A stretch of DNA of 64,000 nt, from positions 1,783 through 65,782 of the forward strand of contig JBHELY010000011.1 of NCBI GenBank assembly GCA_046262815.1, read 5' to 3'. Origin of the DNA: Chthoniobacterales bacterium. GTDB lineage: Bacteria > Verrucomicrobiota > Verrucomicrobiia > Chthoniobacterales > UBA10450. Below, piece after piece: positions 37,385 to 43,551 of the stretch. Position 1 is the stretch's first letter. Each line of letters opens with the position of its first letter. The notes under the pieces were generated by a model. That model was not told where the DNA came from. It saw only the letters and a list, made by a program, of their open reading frames with translations, and searched no databases. A program made the translations under genes and the position numbers.

Positions 37385-37453
37385 TGCGCGATGATAATCG
37401 CGAAAATCTTGAATCCAAACCGTCGTCCTGCTCCGTCCATTCTAGAGAACGCC

Positions 37454-37843
37454 ATGGAAACCTCATACCCACAACCGCCGCCAACCCCCGTCAACGTCAC
37501 TGCCGTCGCGAACGTGCGCACCTGGTCCGCATTCATCCACGCCAGCGCTCTGCTCGGCGTCTTGCTCCATTTCCCTGGCCACCTGCTCCCGCCGCTCATC
37601 CTCTGGCTAATCAAACGCGACGACGCCCCCGAGCTCGACGCCCACGGCAAGGAAGCGGTCAACTTCCAGATCTCGATGCTGATCTACAACGTCGTTGCCG
37701 CGATCTTCTGCCTCGTCCTGGTCGGCTTCGCTTTCCTCGGCATCCTCTGGATCCTGAACACCATCTTCGTCATCATCGCCGCCATCCAGGCCAGCGACGG
37801 CAAATTCTACCGCTACCCCATGACGATCCGGTTCATCCAATAA
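37454..37843 (+). CDS. DUF4870-domain membrane protein
   Basis: Trimmed to ATG 37454. LILWLIKRDD...HGKEAVNFQIS pattern. Confidence 0.7.
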   Translation: METSYPQPPPTPVNVTAVANVRTWSAFIHASALLGVLLHFPGHLLPPLILWLIKRDDAPELDAHGKEAVNFQISMLIYNVVAAIFCLVLVGFAFLGILWILNTIFVIIAAIQASDGKFYRYPMTIRFIQ

Positions 37844-37845
37844 GG

Positions 37846-37869
37846 TGTAGAGGCGGGTGTCCCACCCGC
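37846..37869 (+). repeat. GTAG-headed REP-like hairpin
   Basis: TGTAG-ag-GCGGGTG-tcc-CACCCGC, 2 nt after the DUF4870 stop codon. Confidence 0.45.
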
Positions 37870-37876
37870 AGACTTA

Positions 37877-38162
37877 CCCGCGCAGGGAAGATTCTTCCGC
37901 GCGTCGCCCTCATTCCCGCGCGCGTGGCGACTCTTCCGGCGTGTGTGGCGACGCTCCCACGCGCGTGGCGACTCTCGGCGCGTGCTCTGGAACCGCGTAT
38001 TTACCGGCACGAAACCGTTCCAGCGCACGCCCGGACAATTCCAGCGCGACGGCAAGGTTCTCCACGCATGTCGCGATAACTCCCACGCGCGCACCAAGGG
38101 TTCCCACGCTCGCAGCAATCATCCCCACGCACGCGGGAATCGTTCCCACGCGCAGCCCTTCT
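37877..38162. repeat. about 14 degenerate 20-21 bp tandem repeats (consensus about CCCACGCGCGnnnnnnnnnTT)
   Basis: Best-preserved units: 38082 cccacgcgcgcaccaagggtt, 38103 cccacgctcgcagcaatcat, 38123 ccccacgcacgcgggaatcgtt, 37915 cccgcgcgcgtggcgactctt, 37956 cccacgcgcgtggcgactct. Confidence 0.7.
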
Positions 38163-38319
38163 CCCGTTAAATCACGTTCCTGCTACGTTTTCCGACCTCC
38201 GGGCCTGCTCTCTGGCCTCCGAACTTTCTCCTTTAGCCTTTCGACCTTCTACTTTCCGTTTGCCGCTACCCGATCGACCATCCGGTTTATTCAATAACGG
38301 AGTCCGAATACCGACGGGT

Positions 38320-38538
38320 TTAGCGGAATTTTTCAATATCGATTCCGCTTCCTTCGATGATGCTCTTGAGTGTGCCGATAGGAATCGGCTTGCTGGCGTG
38401 AACCGCCACGACCACCTGGCGACCGTTAGCATGTCGCCACTTCTGATGGCTGCCACGCTGACCTGCGAGCGCGAATCCGTGGCGTTGTAGAATCTTGGTG
38501 ACGTCTCTCGCAGTGCGAACCGGAAATCGTCGGCTCAC
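38320..38538 (-). CDS. hicA: type II toxin HicA
   Basis: 72 aa. GSHQKWRH...IPIGTLKSII is the HicA pattern. 4-nt overlap with hicB. Confidence 0.85.
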   Translation of the reverse strand: MSRRFPVRTARDVTKILQRHGFALAGQRGSHQKWRHANGRQVVVAVHASKPIPIGTLKSIIEGSGIDIEKFR

Positions 38539-38738
38539 GGAACCGCGACTTCCAAAATCCTTGCCCCGTCGGCAAGATGCACGTCCGCCGGTTCAAACCA
38601 AAGCGCCAGCGCCTCCTTCGCGTTCGAAACCGCTTCTTCCTCTGTGTCGCCTGCGCTCGCGCACCCGGGCAATTCAGGAAACACAGCGGACCATCGCTTT
38701 GTTTGCCGATCAAACTCCACTATGACGCGCAACTTCAT
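38535..38738 (-). CDS. hicB: type II antitoxin HicB (UPF0150-type, no DNA-binding extension)
   Basis: 67 aa. FPELPGCASAGDTEEEAVSNAKEAL. Confidence 0.8.
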   Translation of the reverse strand: MKLRVIVEFDRQTKRWSAVFPELPGCASAGDTEEEAVSNAKEALALWFEPADVHLADGARILEVAVP

Positions 38739-38793
38739 GGCGGTGACTCTATCGCAAAATCAGTTGAAATGCACGATACTCCAACGCGCAGTG

Positions 38794-39519
38794 TCAGTCG
38801 GAGGTTGTAAGTTTGCGCTTCCAGAGATTTAACGTTCCAATCAGCAATTCGAAGTCCTCCTCCGACATCGGATACGGAATTCGCGCGACCATCTGACCGG
38901 TTAAAGGAACCGATACTTCAGGATGTGACGGTTGAGTTGTTAACGCTGCGCTTGTCGTCCTATCAAAAGAATCCGGTTCGGGCCGCACATGAGTTATCGA
39001 AGCGGTCTTCGCAGGCGACGAGTGCAGAGGCTGCGTCTCGGCACCGTCGCCTTTGGCATAAATTCTAGCGAATTCAACGGTCGACTTGTACACTGCGGAA
39101 GCGCGTCGCGCACCTTCTGGGGTAAACCCAATCTGAACCAGATGATTGGCTAACACGTCCTCAGAGCAATCGTGATATCCCCCTTCAAAGATCTGAGAAA
39201 ATATTTTCGGACGGAGCGCAGCTTCCTTTTTCGCCTCAGCTTCCTGCGAATCATTGAGCGGATGAATGAGCCGAATGGCCAAAGGCGACACTGAGAGACC
39301 GTTTCGATCTGAATCGACTAGTCCATAATGTTTCAACGCGGCCAATGTTCCAAGCGCGGCGCCGTTGAGGCTCGAGTATCCCAGTGGTCCCAATGCGACC
39401 TCCGCCCGAATGTTTGCTCGCCCTGCTTTCACATGCAGTTTTCGAACAAGATCGACAGCCTCATTGAGCGCGATCCGTGGGTATTTGGGACTTCGTTCCT
39501 TCTTAATGTCTTCTTCCAT
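38794..39519 (-). CDS. orphan hypothetical protein upstream of hicBA
   Basis: ORF 38794..39594; Met at 39519 preferred (MEEDIKKERSPKYPRIALNEAVDLV). AT-richer than its surroundings. No family recognised with confidence. Confidence 0.55.
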   Translation of the reverse strand: MEEDIKKERSPKYPRIALNEAVDLVRKLHVKAGRANIRAEVALGPLGYSSLNGAALGTLAALKHYGLVDSDRNGLSVSPLAIRLIHPLNDSQEAEAKKEAALRPKIFSQIFEGGYHDCSEDVLANHLVQIGFTPEGARRASAVYKSTVEFARIYAKGDGAETQPLHSSPAKTASITHVRPEPDSFDRTTSAALTTQPSHPEVSVPLTGQMVARIPYPMSEEDFELLIGTLNLWKRKLTTSD

Positions 39520-39744
39520 GGCGATAGACTTATCTCCTTCCTCACAATATTGCAACATTAATCTCCTTGACCGCAGTCTAACCCAGGAGACCAATACTAA
39601 TCTTCGGTTTATCCAGATTTTGACGCCAGGACCCGACAGTATTAACGCGACCGCACCTTTTATACGCTCCCCAAGCGCCTACATAGACAGTCATCTTGAT
39701 ATATCGCGTCTCGTTATCGCCATTCTAGTGCAGCCGTGAACATA

Positions 39745-40419
39745 ACCTGAACAGCATAGCCGGCGACAGCCGTGCCGCGCGATCCTGGCGCTCGTGACGA
39801 TGGAATAGTCGAGCAGTTCGGTTTTCGAACAGAAAAGGGCGACTTTTGAGCAACGGGTGCCGTTTCGGCGGACAGAGTTTTTGTGAGGATGCGTTTCGAT
39901 CCAATGGCCACCGAGATGTCATAATCGCGGAATCGCGACATCGTGGAGCTTTAATTGGATGTACATCTCCATTTGTCCGCTTAATAGTCGGTGTCAACGC
40001 CAAATATCGAGAAAACTTGTACTGTGTAGCATCATGAGGTGCGCGATACCTGAACAGCGTAGCCGGCGACAGTCGTGCCGCGCGATCCTGGCGCTCGTGA
40101 CGATGGAATAGTCGAGCAGTTCGGTTTGTCGAAGAGAAAAGGACAACTTTTGAGCAACGGGTGCCGTGGCAATAGACGGAGTTTTCCATGGCAGATCTGT
40201 TTCGATCGAACCGACCGCCAGAACAGGCCAATCGCGACGGCATGCGGGGGCAGGGCTGGAAATGAGTGAACATCGCCATTATGTCGATTAAGGGTTTGTT
40301 CAACGCGTAAATTCGAGAAAAATGTTGTTGCGTAGCATTTGGAAGTGCGCGATACCTGAACAGCGCAGCCGGCGACAGCCGTGCCGCGCGATCCTGGCGC
40401 TCGTGAGAGCGCCAGGATC
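39745..40419. repeat. three tandem units (periods 303 and 306 bp) with a highly conserved ~120-nt core
   Basis: ACCTGAACAGC starts at 39745, 40048 and 40354. Cores 39745-39863 and 40048-40167 differ at about 6 positions. The third copy shares 53 nt and then forms the hairpin 40390-40419. Confidence 0.85.
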
Positions 40420-40426
40420 CGAAAGA

Positions 40427-40516
40427 CACCCGTGTAGCTCAACTGGATAGAGCACCGCATAGGCGACGGGAAGCCGATGATGCGGGGATGGCTAGGTTCG
40501 AATCCCCCACGGGTGG
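40427..40516 (+). ncRNA. non-canonical tRNA-like element (possible tRNA-derived RNA or pseudogene)
   Basis: Acceptor CACCCGTG/CACGGGTG and canonical D-arm GTAGCTCAACTGGATAGAGCA. The anticodon-arm stem CCGCAT/ATGCGG has a 19-nt loop. GGTTCGAATCC box present, but the T-stem GGGGA/TCCCC encloses 14 nt. Confidence 0.45.
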
Positions 40517-40562
40517 TCTGAATTTATCCCTGATTGCCCGAGCCGCAAGGGCCGATCTGGTC

Positions 40563-40606
40563 GCCTAACGACTAGACGCGCACTCACTTAAAAGCCGTCG
40601 TTAGGC
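40563..40606. terminator. inverted pair GCCTAACGAC ... GTCGTTAGGC at the 3' end of the POT gene
   Basis: 10-bp perfect arms with a 24-nt spacer. The right arm contains the POT stop codon. No U-tract. Confidence 0.45.
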
Positions 40607-42001
40607 CTTCGCTCCGACCTCGAGCTGATGGCTGGCGACGAATTTGAAGATCACGAAGCAGAGGCCTGAGCCGAGAGCGAAGGCGCCGTGGAGGAGCCAG
40701 AAGTTGGTGGTGGGCCATTTCTCGAGGAAGCCGCCAACCCAGCCGACCATGGTATTGGCGGCGAAGAAGGCCAGATAATACAGGCCGATGATGGTGGCGT
40801 TGATCGCTTTCGGCGCGTACTTCGCGAATAACGCGAGACTGATCGGCAACAGATGCGCGAATGCGATGCTGTTGATGAAGTGGAACGCGACCGGCCAGAA
40901 GAGTCCGATTTTCTGCCCGGCGGTCTGCGTGGCCGCGGCCATGAAAAGACAGAGGGTGCCGGCAATCGAAAAAACGGAGCCGATGATGAGCTTCGTGACT
41001 TCGTCGGGCTCGCGCCGACGCTTCCCGTACCAACGATAGAAAATCGCGACAAGCGCTAGGAAGGTGACGCTGACGATGGCGTCGAGAGTAACGAGCCAGG
41101 TGGTCGGCAGTTTTTTGCCCATGAAAACGAGGTCGAACTGCTGGTCGCCCCAAACCAGGTAGGCGTTAAAGATCTGGTTGTTCGGCACGATCGCGACGGC
41201 AAGCACGGGGATAAGAAGGACGAGCGCGATGATGGCGCGCCAGTCGCGCCCGGTGAGCTTCGCGCGCGGCGCACTCGTGACGACGGCGAGGCTCGGGTCG
41301 TTGTCGCTTGCGCGAAGATATTTTTGTCCCCGCAAATAAATGCCGATGGCGAGAAGCATGCCGACGCCGGCAGCGGCGAAGCCGTAATGCCATCCGACTT
41401 TTTCGCCTAACGAGCCGACAATAAGCGGTGAGATGATGACGCCGGCGTTGATGCCGAGATAGAAAATCTGGAAGGCGTCGGCGCGGCGGAGGTCTTCGGG
41501 TTTGTAAAGCGAGCCGACCTGGCTGGCGATGTTGCCCTTGAACATGCCGCATCCGAGTACGAGGCAAAGGAGCGCAAATAGAAACGCAGTCTCGAATGCC
41601 ATCAGGAAATGGCCGGCGGCCATGGTGAACGCGCCGAGCAGAACGGTGCGGCGCCGGCCGAGAACGCGATCGGCAAGGAAACCGCCGAAGATTGGTGTGA
41701 GATAAACGGCGGCGGTGTACGTGCCGAAGATGGCGGAAGCTAGCGGTTGCCCACCGAGTCCGCTATAAAATGGCAGTTGGCGGAACGCGTCGAAGATCGC
41801 GACCCGCTCGATGCGTCCGGGCAGGAGAAGATACTTCACCATGTAAAGGACAAGCAGCGATTGCATGCCGTAGTAGGAAAAGCGTTCCCACGCTTCGGTG
41901 AACGCGAGATACCAGAGCCCGCGCGGGTGTCCGAGGAAACCGGGGGTGTGTTCTTCGCCGGTCAACGGCGCGGCGTCATCAGGCTCGGCGGTGGCGGTCA
42001 T
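40601..42001 (-). CDS. POT/PTR2 family proton-dependent oligopeptide transporter
   Basis: 466 aa. GHPRGLWYLAFTEAWERFSYYGMQSLLVLYM is the PTR2 signature. Confidence 0.9.
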   Translation of the reverse strand: MTATAEPDDAAPLTGEEHTPGFLGHPRGLWYLAFTEAWERFSYYGMQSLLVLYMVKYLLLPGRIERVAIFDAFRQLPFYSGLGGQPLASAIFGTYTAAVYLTPIFGGFLADRVLGRRRTVLLGAFTMAAGHFLMAFETAFLFALLCLVLGCGMFKGNIASQVGSLYKPEDLRRADAFQIFYLGINAGVIISPLIVGSLGEKVGWHYGFAAAGVGMLLAIGIYLRGQKYLRASDNDPSLAVVTSAPRAKLTGRDWRAIIALVLLIPVLAVAIVPNNQIFNAYLVWGDQQFDLVFMGKKLPTTWLVTLDAIVSVTFLALVAIFYRWYGKRRREPDEVTKLIIGSVFSIAGTLCLFMAAATQTAGQKIGLFWPVAFHFINSIAFAHLLPISLALFAKYAPKAINATIIGLYYLAFFAANTMVGWVGGFLEKWPTTNFWLLHGAFALGSGLCFVIFKFVASHQLEVGAKA

Positions 42002-42176
42002 GCGGCGGGCAGATTAGCGAGACGAATTGAATCAGGAAAACAGGAAAATAGGAAAGAACAGAACAATCTGGAAGCCAGGAAACCAAGAAGAAGGGAAAAG
42101 AAAATGTAATCGCATCGCGCTCTTCGTTCCTGGATTCCTGTTTTCCAAATTAGTTCCTGTTTTCTTCTTTCCTGAT
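42002..42176 (-). promoter_or_regulatory. AT-rich 175-nt spacer/leader with CAGGAA repeats and 11-bp terminal inverted repeats
   Basis: CAGGAA at 42033, 42041 and 42076. TTCCTG at 42127, 42135, 42154 and 42169. GAATCAGGAAA (42029-42039) pairs with TTTCCTGATTC (42168-42178). Confidence 0.4.
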
Positions 42177-42488
42177 TCATCTCCCGCGCCAATGCCGCAG
42201 CACGCGATGGGTCGGCGTCGCTGTCGCGTGATCGCTCTCGGTTTCGATCAATTCACGGCGGCGCAAGAGTTCGAGCGCGGACTGTATCGCGCTCTTCGAG
42301 AGGCCGGTTTCTTCGGCGAGCGAACGCAAACTCGCCGCAACCGGTTTCCACTTCGCACGCGCGGCCTTTCCGTAGAGATAGACGTAGATCAGATAGGCGG
42401 CCGGCTGGCGATCGTGACCCACGATGTCGTGCATGAGAACGTCAAGGACGTAATCGTCAATTGGAATGGTTTCGCGAAAGCGAGGCAC
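42177..42488 (-). CDS. small winged-helix/HTH-like protein, hypothetical
   Basis: 103 aa. SLRSLAEETGLSKSAIQSALELLRRRELI is HTH-like. Confidence 0.55.
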   Translation of the reverse strand: MPRFRETIPIDDYVLDVLMHDIVGHDRQPAAYLIYVYLYGKAARAKWKPVAASLRSLAEETGLSKSAIQSALELLRRRELIETESDHATATPTHRVLRHWRGR

Positions 42489-42580
42489 GGCAAGAGTGGC
42501 GGCGGTTTGTCTGTCTGTCCGGGACTGTCAACATCTCGCCGCGCGAATACTGACACGCAACAATTCGACTGTGTCAGAAA

Positions 42581-43195
42581 TCAAAGATGTTTGGCGATGC
42601 GGCGCTTCTTTTTTACGTCGGTCTCGCCGAAGAGGAATTTGATTGCATGATCAACGCTATGATACGCCAGGACGATTGGGTTATTTTCCTTCTGCACCGT
42701 CCGCTGGCGAGGGTGACCTAACGACCGACGTCTGGCTGCAATGTCATTCTTTAAGGCTCCCTCGATATCCGAACCCGCGCTGGCAAGTGCGATATCACCG
42801 TGCGCGATCAGGGCGCGTTCGAACTGAGTGGCCCGCTCATCCATGGCCCAACGGGAAGTCACAGACCGATCGAGGGACTCGCCATTTGCGCCGCGGACGT
42901 CGCCGTGATTGTCGATCACGAAGGCGGGCGTAACGCCGAGAGGTCTTCTGGCAATGCCGAGGGATATGCAGATGTCCAAATCAATAAAGCCAGTGCGCGC
43001 GAATCCCTTTCTTTCCTGATAGCGGCCGACAGCGGCGGTAAGCGGAGGGCTGATTTCACCCGTGATTTCGCCATAAAACAGATGGCGCTTGCGAAGTTCT
43101 TCCTGGACTCTGCGAACCTGGTCATTAGCAAAAACGTCGGAGAAGAGGGAGAGTTCAAATCCCAGAACCAGTAGGCAAGTTGGAAACCTACCCAT
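42581..43195 (-). CDS. peptidoglycan-binding (PG_binding_1-like) domain protein
   Basis: 204 aa. VRRVQEELRKRHLFYGEITGEISPPLTAAVGRYQERKGFARTG. Confidence 0.65.
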   Translation of the reverse strand: MGRFPTCLLVLGFELSLFSDVFANDQVRRVQEELRKRHLFYGEITGEISPPLTAAVGRYQERKGFARTGFIDLDICISLGIARRPLGVTPAFVIDNHGDVRGANGESLDRSVTSRWAMDERATQFERALIAHGDIALASAGSDIEGALKNDIAARRRSLGHPRQRTVQKENNPIVLAYHSVDHAIKFLFGETDVKKKRRIAKHL

Positions 43196-43241
43196 ATAAT
43201 ATAATTCGACGCTGATCCTCGAGACGGCTCTGCGACCGGAT

Positions 43242-43282
43242 GCCTAACGACAGCTTCCAAGATATAACCAAACTCGTTAGGC
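43242..43282. repeat. inverted pair GCCTAACGA ... TCGTTAGGC
   Basis: 9-bp perfect arms with a 23-nt AT-rich spacer, in a 355-nt intergenic region. Confidence 0.5.
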
Positions 43283-43551
43283 CTTACCAGTCAAAGGTTT
43301 AGGCATTTCAAACTATCTCGCAGATTTCGCGAGATTCTTTCCCAAGCCGCTCCGCCAGCGGACTTAGCCAAATTTCAGCGGTTCAGCAAAATTAGGCCTG
43401 GAGCGGTTCCTGGCACCGCCGATGCTCGCCGCGGCCCAACCCAGGACACGGCTCCAGGTTGGCTATACCGATAAACGGACAACGGTTTCTGCGCCCAAAC
43501 GCTGACCGTTGCTGGACGGAAAAGATTCCGAACGCTTAACGTCGGATCGCC

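Follow-up and report, generated by a model that had tools for sequence, protein, structure and literature searches.

The stretch of DNA analysed here, hereafter the window, comprises 64,000 nt of a single contig (JBHELY010000011.1, positions 1,783 to 65,782) belonging to a metagenome-assembled genome (MAG) of a Chthoniobacterales bacterium, and its focus of interest is an islet of ~2.7 kb enclosed by two convergent conserved genes that code respectively for a DUF4870 membrane protein and a POT family transporter. This one MAG contig was compared throughout with species-representative genomes, and the loci fetched for the various comparisons are referred to by L numbers where they need to be told apart. 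The features located between and within the two flanking genes, given by their coordinates in the window, were as follows.

37448–37843, plus strand: DUF4870 membrane-protein gene, the conserved left flank (Pfam PF09685, E = 3.1e-37), whose orthologues, 67–96% identical, adjoin POT in 10 relatives
37809–37843, plus strand: DR1, the final 35 nt of DUF4870 including its stop codon, copy 1 of an att-like direct repeat (local alignment with 38263–38297)
37853–37869, no strand assigned: hairpin with a 7-bp stem and 3-nt loop, GCGGGTG-TCC-CACCCGC (read from the sequence)
37896–38164, plus strand: degenerate 21-bp array of ~11–13 copies (Tandem Repeats Finder (TRF), autocorrelation and per-position information content)
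38263–38297, plus strand: DR2, a decayed second copy of the DUF4870 3′ end (CCGCTACCCGATCGACCATCCGGTTTATTCAATAA), similarity ending directly after the TAA (alignment)
38320–38538, minus strand: hicA toxin gene, 72 aa (Pfam HicA_toxin, 4.5e-18)
38535–38738, minus strand: hicB antitoxin gene, 67 aa, N-terminal domain only (Pfam HicB_lk_antitox, 1.9e-11)
38794–39519 (39594 with a TTG start), minus strand: gene of a conserved uncharacterised family, 241 aa (46 homologous clusters, AlphaFold 2 (AF2) model)
39691–40406, no strand assigned: tandem non-coding repeat, ~305 bp × 2.2–2.35 copies (TRF, alignments)
40390–40419, no strand assigned: perfect 13-bp palindrome (GATCCTGGCGCTC GTGA GAGCGCCAGGATC) where the third repeat head ends (sequence, folding)
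40428–40515, plus strand: tRNA-Arg(ACG)-derived tRNA-like element (ARAGORN; Rfam tRNA model)
40563–40606, no strand assigned: inverted pair of GCCTAACGA(C), the right arm of which includes the POT stop codon
40601–42001, minus strand: POT/PTR2 family transporter gene, the conserved right flank (Pfam PTR2, 9.5e-29)

An earlier note, made from the sequence alone, had described the islet as AT-richer than its surroundings with stretches near 42% GC, and this was borne out: its overall GC content is 55.1% as against 58.9% for the whole window, the 51.4% recorded across 38700–40350 is the lowest value among all the 1650-nt stretches of the 64 kb, and local minima of 39–43.5% lie around 39424–39624, near the 5′ end of the gene upstream of hicBA. 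Domain searches of every islet open reading frame (ORF) detected no integrase, transposase or replication initiator (Rep) domain, in agreement with the same note, which had reported no integrase, transposase or replication gene there. When the search against plasmids and phages that it had proposed was run with blastn, the whole islet matched nothing among 72,556 plasmids (PLSDB) and 50,697 phage records (INPHARED).

A scan conducted with the POT protein recovered orthologues of 75–92% identity from ~30 Chthoniobacterales MAGs, and the tail-to-tail arrangement of DUF4870 and POT was found to be retained in 10 relatives. The spacer between the two genes ranged in length from ~100 bp (L017) through 0.66–0.95 kb (L010, L005, L020 and L018), 1.85 kb (L014) and 2.8 kb (L073) to 7.5 kb (L006) and 8.3 kb (L004). 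Comparison of the islet interior with the relatives' loci by blastn with 9-nt words gave zero matches, the gene ends alone being alignable, and the relatives' spacers when compared with one another likewise had no sequence in common. Recognisable cargo in these spacers consisted of a ParE toxin and Unstab_antitox pair (L020), an N6/N4 DNA methylase with an adjoining unknown ORF plus an MBL hydrolase (L006), and an SNF2/SWIM helicase (both L004 and L006). Because the spacers vary in both length and content, and share no sequence either mutually or with the islet, these data demonstrate that the islet is accessory DNA sited in a hypervariable hotspot. Its accessory status, as first proposed, is thereby upheld by the very synteny comparison that had been suggested for checking it, the interior sequence being missing from the locus in all relatives compared, and the conservation throughout the relatives that would mark the segment as core being clearly absent.

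The POT/DUF4870 locus thus constitutes a well-defined recurrent insertion hotspot of the Chthoniobacterales that could be mined for defence systems, an SNF2 helicase, a restriction-modification methylase and a TCAD9 system having already been seen there. The last of these occupies L004:15516–19665 in the POT–DUF4870 spacer and consists of three genes, whose products are an AAA ATPase of the SMC-like kind, a HATPase_c protein and a protein that combines a receiver domain with a TCAD9 (ternary-complex-associated) domain, a set which looks like a conflict or defence system.

Local alignment of DR1 with DR2 gave 30 identical positions out of 35 with one indel, and both copies resemble the ends of orthologous DUF4870 genes. 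What they enclose is precisely the 21-bp array together with the hairpin and a stretch rich in pyrimidines, ~420 bp in total. Site-specific integration into a gene end leaves duplicated gene termini, and because such termini are the mark of that process, 37844–38262 is read as the remnant of an integrated element, the DUF4870-end duplicate presumably having originated by integration and the remnant having probably been acquired apart from the DNA on its right. Duplicates of the POT 3′ end, 118–130 nt in length, were in turn present on the far side of inserted genes in L020 and L004, which points to repeated site-specific insertion at the end of that gene. The DNA lying between the POT stop codon and the duplicate carries the ParE/antitoxin cargo in the former (L020:11409–12096) and the SNF2 helicase cargo in the latter (L004:12126–15400).

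None of the features expected of an island targeted to a tRNA gene was found, there being no tRNA at the relatives' empty site, no tRNA end repeated at the opposite boundary and no integrase; the feature expected of an island at a gene 3′ end, a duplicated terminus flanking the insert, was present (37809–37843 and 38263–38297). In its variable cargo, duplicated gene 3′ ends and lower GC content the locus resembles integration hotspots and defence islands at core-gene 3′ ends, including att-flanked remnants deprived of their integrase and akin to the cis-mobilisable elements (CIMEs), the cargo in relatives here being of the toxin-antitoxin, restriction-modification and helicase kinds. The islet differs in that no integrase is left, the duplicate is both short and decayed, and the remnant between the repeats amounts to only the ~420 bp already described. 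The hairpin within that remnant starts 10 nt past the DUF4870 stop codon and had been characterised as REP-like: the hairpin is real, but this characterisation failed for want of a second exact copy in the 64 kb. By way of contrast with the many intergenic palindrome copies typical of repetitive extragenic palindromic (REP) sequences and bacterial interspersed mosaic elements, the window holds one exact copy plus a single look-alike with two mismatches, which is chance level, and the relatives' spacers hold none.

The reading best suited to these data, to which a rough probability of 0.6 may be attached, is that the segment is a strain-specific mosaic built up in a recombination or integration hotspot between two convergent core genes. 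Its likely working parts would be the hicB–hicA pair together with the winged-helix-like gene situated just upstream on the same strand. The ~420-bp remnant, with its hairpin and phased 21-bp sites of a binding type, would be debris left by integration into the end of the DUF4870 gene, the array representing either the iterons of the remnant or the arm-type sites of an integrase; further debris would comprise a non-coding duplication of 2.35 × 305 bp and a tRNA-Arg(ACG) pseudogene or tRNA-like element with two insertions; and the CCTAACGA inverted pair would merely happen to sit at the POT stop codon. So read, the islet is a further case in which cargo of the toxin-antitoxin and defence type has collected between convergent core genes, and it invokes no new mechanism, the main value of its analysis being a cleaned-up annotation.

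The hicA–hicB module of the original description was confirmed by the relevant Pfam matches and by a 4-nt overlap of the two genes. The match of HicA to PF07927 spans residues 10–66 with full coverage of the profile, and a GSH motif is present in the translation; that of HicB to PF15919 covers profile positions 3–47 of 123. Proteins of this HicA subfamily abound: over 800 clusters of 72-aa relatives were found, and the 120 at the top of the listing show 69–83% identity. Toxins of the HicA family cleave mRNA independently of the ribosome and are neutralised through binding by HicB. Overlapping bicistronic genes for proteins of 72 and 67 aa with these same domains are characteristic of type II HicAB systems of the short-HicB, antitoxin-first kind, the identical layout of which occurs in many soil metagenome contigs, and from which no notable difference was apparent, HicB being devoid of the DNA-binding C-terminal domain like many others of its subtype. 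Judged by these sequence matches, hicB–hicA is probably a standard type II toxin-antitoxin pair and one that is likely to be working.

The gene that precedes hicBA had been regarded as an orphan of 241–266 aa, a description that holds as regards the gene itself but not its isolation, 46 homologous clusters having been found. The AF2 model of its product is confident (pLDDT 82); it begins at the N-terminus with three helices plus a wing, continues with a helical domain and a disordered linker (residues 157–197), and ends in a conserved C-terminal beta-hairpin plus helix. Foldseek searches conducted with this model returned no significant global match (none with E < 0.03), the weak local matches being to winged-helix domains, namely the RuvB C-terminal domain (probability 0.93–0.98), MotA (0.92), CggR (0.87) and regulators of the MarR/GntR type. 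Identification as a Rep, phage or defence protein was rejected, there being no match in Pfam, NCBIfam, PHROG, PADLOC or the PDB sequences and the model being unlike Rep structures; the family was also not found in IMG/VR. Neighbours of family members include PIN/MazE and PhdYeFM genes (L091), a Zeta toxin gene plus a helix-turn-helix gene (L160), IS1595 (L089), NYN (L003), MT-A70 (L159) and RadC/Rep-like genes (L001), toxin-antitoxin or mobile genes adjoining the family in around half of the contigs examined. An association of the homologues with tRNAs or tandem repeats, also considered, was encountered in none of six loci. The modelled fold and these neighbourhoods suggest that the gene probably encodes a DNA-binding regulator which travels with toxin-antitoxin and mobile genes, and an uncharacterised winged-helix-like family with a confident model in such company could merit specialist attention.

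These same neighbourhoods are relevant to an alternative in which the winged-helix gene, hicB and hicA would be a toxin-antitoxin operon of three genes, with the product of the first serving as the DNA-binding repressor that the short HicB lacks. Such an arrangement would account for the location of the gene on the same strand at a distance of 55 nt from hicB, for a HicB confined to profile positions 3–47 of 123 and hence bereft of a C-terminal DNA-binding domain, and for the frequency with which the family is found beside toxin or antitoxin genes (PhdYeFM and PIN/MazE in L091, the Zeta toxin in L160). It is nonetheless unlikely, in that the closest checked HicA relative (L162, 82% identical) overlaps with a 70-aa HicB and has no winged-helix gene upstream, the downstream neighbours of the family are mixed (NYN, MT-A70, a small membrane ORF and unknown ORFs of 79–85 aa), PADLOC gave no match, and the upstream motif shared within the family did not rise above its control. 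The motif in question, TCGCGTTA, was considered as a shared operator on the strength of its occurrence on the same strand upstream of four of eight family members, and was discarded when it failed to exceed the random-segment 7-mer control. Its sites lie at 39631–39656 in the window and upstream of the homologues in L001, L003 and L159.

With respect to the 21-bp array, TRF assigned a period of 21 to two blocks (37898–37975 and 38081–38153), and the lag-21 autocorrelation of 0.472 exceeded the maximum of 0.412 reached over 500 shuffles. Between 37896 and 38164 there are 10–11 recognisable copies plus a degenerate gap of 42 nt, so that the array itself stands as first described while its copy number has to be lowered from ~14 to ~11–13. 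The copies are degenerate (74–76% matches), the core TTCCcaCGCgcG being conserved (1.5–2 bits at the best positions) and the other ~10 nt variable, a pattern which, on sequence grounds, suggests an array of protein-binding sites and is unlike a recent slippage repeat. The possibility that its motif is a word common to the entire window was dismissed: TCCCACGCGC with at most one mismatch occurs 15 times as against 13.7 expected, and is merely clustered in the array.

Of the characteristics of an iteron-bearing replicon, phased direct repeats of 17–22 bp are clearly present (period 21, ~11–13 copies, conserved core); a cognate Rep gene beside or around the iterons was not detected, no ORF of the islet having a Rep domain. 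The likeness to the iteron arrays of plasmid and phage origins, or to the arm-type sites of attP, lies in direct repeats of ~21 bp that keep helical phase and share a core of ~10 nt; the islet differs in having no initiator or integrase gene adjoining the array, in the degeneracy of its copies and in having no adjacent AT-rich stretch, the array segment being itself GC-rich at 62%. A scan of viral contigs (IMG/VR) for three TCCCACGC words at ~21-bp spacing yielded 13 loci, most of which proved to be unrelated coding heptad repeats and were set aside as candidate relatives, L099 and L104 alone looking iteron-like. In these two, arrays of 22 and 21 bp respectively with the TCCCACGCGC core lie inside homologous ORFs of 396 and 411 aa (L099:356–1546 and L104:1096–2331, both on the minus strand; 24% identity, E 1e-12), each of them ~2 kb from a tyrosine integrase. 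No Pfam domain was found in either ORF, and by analogy with lambda gene O they may be initiator genes with embedded iterons. When their proteins were compared with the window by tblastn, the repeat itself was matched and nothing else. Because the search had forced the 8-mer and tblastn matched the repeat alone, the viral arrays are weak evidence, and an origin or arm-site relic is for the array a plausible, if weakly grounded, identity.

The proposal that the entire islet descends from a plasmid or temperate element that had integrated, in which the array would have served as iteron origin, hicBA as addiction module and the tRNA-like element as boundary before the replication and integration genes were deleted, is distinctly improbable. 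It draws on the phasing of the 21-bp copies at two helical turns, with conserved core and variable spacers, on the viral arrays of L099 and L104 with their TCCCACGCGC core and lambda-O-like layout, on the att-like duplicate that flanks the array, and on the presence of a toxin-antitoxin pair. Against it stand the following: the islet ORFs are devoid of Rep and integrase domains and blastn gave no plasmid or phage match; a shared core is weak evidence when the 8-mer was forced and the viral proteins match the repeat alone; DR2 lies between the array and hicBA, which were therefore probably separate acquisitions; the tRNA-like element is no attB, being missing in relatives and having no terminal duplicates; and the unrelated cargo found at the same spot in relatives is a better fit to repeated small insertions than to a single plasmid. 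The earlier note's relic of an integrated plasmid or island accordingly survives in part. The island component is backed by the att-like duplicate and by the POT-end duplicates of relatives, so that a relic of an integrated element is plausible; the plasmid component, with neither Rep nor a plasmid match to its credit, is possible for the array segment alone.

What had been taken for three tandem units of ~305 bp is indeed a tandem repeat, but one of 2.2–2.35 copies, the third being a head alone. Each unit consists of a head of ~107 nt and a tail of ~200 nt, the two full units (~303 and 306 bp) being followed by a third head and then by different DNA; the heads lie at 39691–39797, 39994–40100 and 40300–40406, and tails follow heads 1 and 2 alone. 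Tails 1 and 2 are homologous (alignment z = 47), and the suggestion that the DNA past head 3, the tRNA region, is a decayed copy of the unit was rejected on finding z < 1 for either tail against that region. Units 1 and 2 share 95% identity over 120 nt, and the three heads agree at 96% over a 53-nt core, as against 70–78% identity for the remainder of the unit. Folding of the conserved block relative to shuffles gave no signal on either strand (z from −0.05 to +0.5), covariation is uninformative with just two or three near-identical copies, and within the units region no sigma-70-like promoter was detected and terminator-like sites occurred at chance level.

Two other identities were considered for the units and abandoned. 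A repeat protein was discounted, the 234-aa ORF on the minus strand having no Pfam or PHROG match and 0 homologues among the 1.84 billion representatives searched; since 303 and 306 are both divisible by 3, an open frame tends to run on from one unit into the next, and the length of the ORF is nothing unusual. A dispersed repeat was discounted also, there being no further copy in the window and the 27-mer core of the heads being missing from viral and metagenome collections. Six-frame tblastn of the units against all fetched loci likewise found nothing. It is concluded that they represent a local tandem duplication of non-coding DNA. An 81-nt stretch containing the perfect palindrome at the end of head 3 folds at z = −6.3 (plus strand) and −5.5 (minus strand), and no U-tract follows the palindrome.

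The non-canonical tRNA-like element of the earlier note was recovered both by ARAGORN and by the Rfam tRNA model, although in the latter case in sensitive mode only (32.6 bits, E 2.8e-4); most tRNAs of the control loci scored 52–73 bits, and a few in one phage-like tRNA array 33–47. Its acceptor (7/7), D (4/4) and anticodon (5/5) stems are fully paired. The anticodon loop, by way of contrast with the 7 nt of a functional tRNA, is 21 nt long (20 nt in the Rfam alignment versus 6 expected), and the T stem has only two of five canonical pairs owing to a deletion or mismatch disruption of ~3 nt, in place of the 5-bp stem that should close the GTTCGAATC loop; no CCA is encoded. In the minimum-energy fold a non-canonical 6-bp stem takes the place of the T arm, breaking up the T loop and competing with the anticodon stem, and the element taken alone exhibited no extra stability relative to shuffles (z = −1.08).

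Canonical tRNA-Arg genes have exactly the D-loop seen here, CTGGATAG, which contains A20, an arginine identity element. The 25-mer GTAGCTCAACTGGATAGAGCACCGC, spanning the D-arm and anticodon stem, was located in 54 metagenome loci, every one of them a canonical tRNA-Arg gene (anticodons ACG, TCT, CCG, TCG and CCT), with the same CCGCA/TGCGG anticodon stem in the ACG genes and the insertion in none of the 54. Descent of the element from a tRNA-Arg is thereby established. Other Rfam families gave no convincing match even at E values up to 10, and interpretation of the element as a group I intron was rejected, the element being far too short; the archaeal bulge-helix-bulge geometry is also absent. 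In combining a recognisable tRNA-Arg cloverleaf and a low covariance-model score with a location in accessory DNA it resembles tRNA pseudogenes and the tRNA-like genes of mobile elements; peculiar to it are the 14-nt excess in the anticodon loop and the ~3-nt T-stem disruption, the other stems being perfect. No relative keeping both POT and DUF4870 has a tRNA between them, and the ends of the element have no duplicate in the window (at up to three mismatches). Because of these two facts it was not an integration target, contrary to the boundary role first proposed for it, and the most fitting description is that of a pseudogene, or tRNA-like element, of tRNA-Arg(ACG) origin brought in with accessory DNA.

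Genes resembling tRNA-Arg with the same D-arm were also seen in phage contigs (L084:4590–4666, minus strand; L087:7994–8069, plus strand; L086; L088), where 15–25 extra nt intervene between the D arm and the T loop and ARAGORN assigns odd anticodons. A GOLLD RNA (L108:3136–3598, minus strand; Rfam 194.7 bits) lies amid more than 20 arrayed tRNA genes in a metagenome contig that was retrieved solely via the shared tRNA-Arg 25-mer.

An RNA-centred module, in which the element would be a tRNA mimic expressed from the hotspot and kept as a decoy for, or sensor of, enzymes that target tRNAs (nucleases or modification enzymes), and the heads would be promoters, processing signals or small RNAs serving it, is highly improbable: three perfectly paired non-T helices, an elongated anticodon arm, a D-loop (CTGGATAG) like that of canonical tRNA-Arg, a strong 13-bp hairpin 8 nt upstream, a 53-nt head core conserved at 96% and a site within a defence and toxin-antitoxin hotspot would be in keeping with it, but the element folds at z = −1.08 and the units at z of about 0 on both strands, no sigma-70-like promoter, U-tract terminator or other convincing Rfam match was found, the head 27-mer is missing from the viral and metagenome collections, 0 of the 54 loci with the tRNA 25-mer has the insertion, and the element was seen a single time. 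The undescribed RNA-centred module that the earlier note had offered as its second option is therefore set aside, given units with z of about 0 and no relatives, and an element resembling a damaged tRNA-Arg; we infer that neither the units nor the element is functional.

Several observations sit less comfortably with the strain-specific mosaic favoured here. The DUF4870-end duplicate is short and only 30/35 identical, there is neither a high-identity intact att pair nor an integrase, and a local duplication could have produced it instead. The conserved core and variable spacers of the array suggest present or recent selection and not pure debris, and the uniformity of the 53-nt head core is unexplained. 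The fully paired acceptor, D and anticodon stems are more intact than those of an old pseudogene would be. Assembly errors in the repeats are also possible, the data being those of species representatives and one MAG contig.

The inverted pair at the POT stop codon belongs to a different phenomenon. The 9-mer GCCTAACGA occurs ten times in the window (at 1764, 11683, 36844, 37104, 40563, 40598, 41405, 43242, 43274 and 53347) as against 0.30 expected, and is also present in L004–L026, L041, L045, L050 and L072. The frequency of CCTAACGA is ~19 per 64 kb in Chthoniobacterales loci compared with 0.24 in the alphaproteobacterial loci of the same scan (~80-fold), rising to 17 copies in 21 kb (L022), or ~1 per 1.3 kb. 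The word is preceded by G in 77% of cases, with no other flanking conservation and no strand skew, and inverted pairs of it lie downstream of genes at POT, at 43242/43274 and in L010. The inverted GCCTAACGAC pair reported earlier at the edge of the islet is thus present at 40563–40606, but as a word found throughout the lineage; because of this over-representation, it is a lineage-wide word overlapping the POT stop codon and not an islet boundary.

As a discrete and highly enriched 9-mer that forms occasional inverted pairs and shows no flanking conservation, GCCTAACGA looks like a word of the DNA-uptake-sequence type, resembling the DNA uptake sequences of Neisseria and the uptake signal sequences of Pasteurellaceae, from which it differs in being known from the window and fetched loci alone, without competence or uptake evidence. 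No publication on the word was found. Were it to be an uptake signal, natural competence would be indicated in a soil group that is hard to culture.

Directly past POT lies a second low-GC stretch of the window (42000–43350, 47.7–54% GC), which holds ORFs of 103 and 204 aa, the former (42177–42488) being kept beside POT in many relatives.

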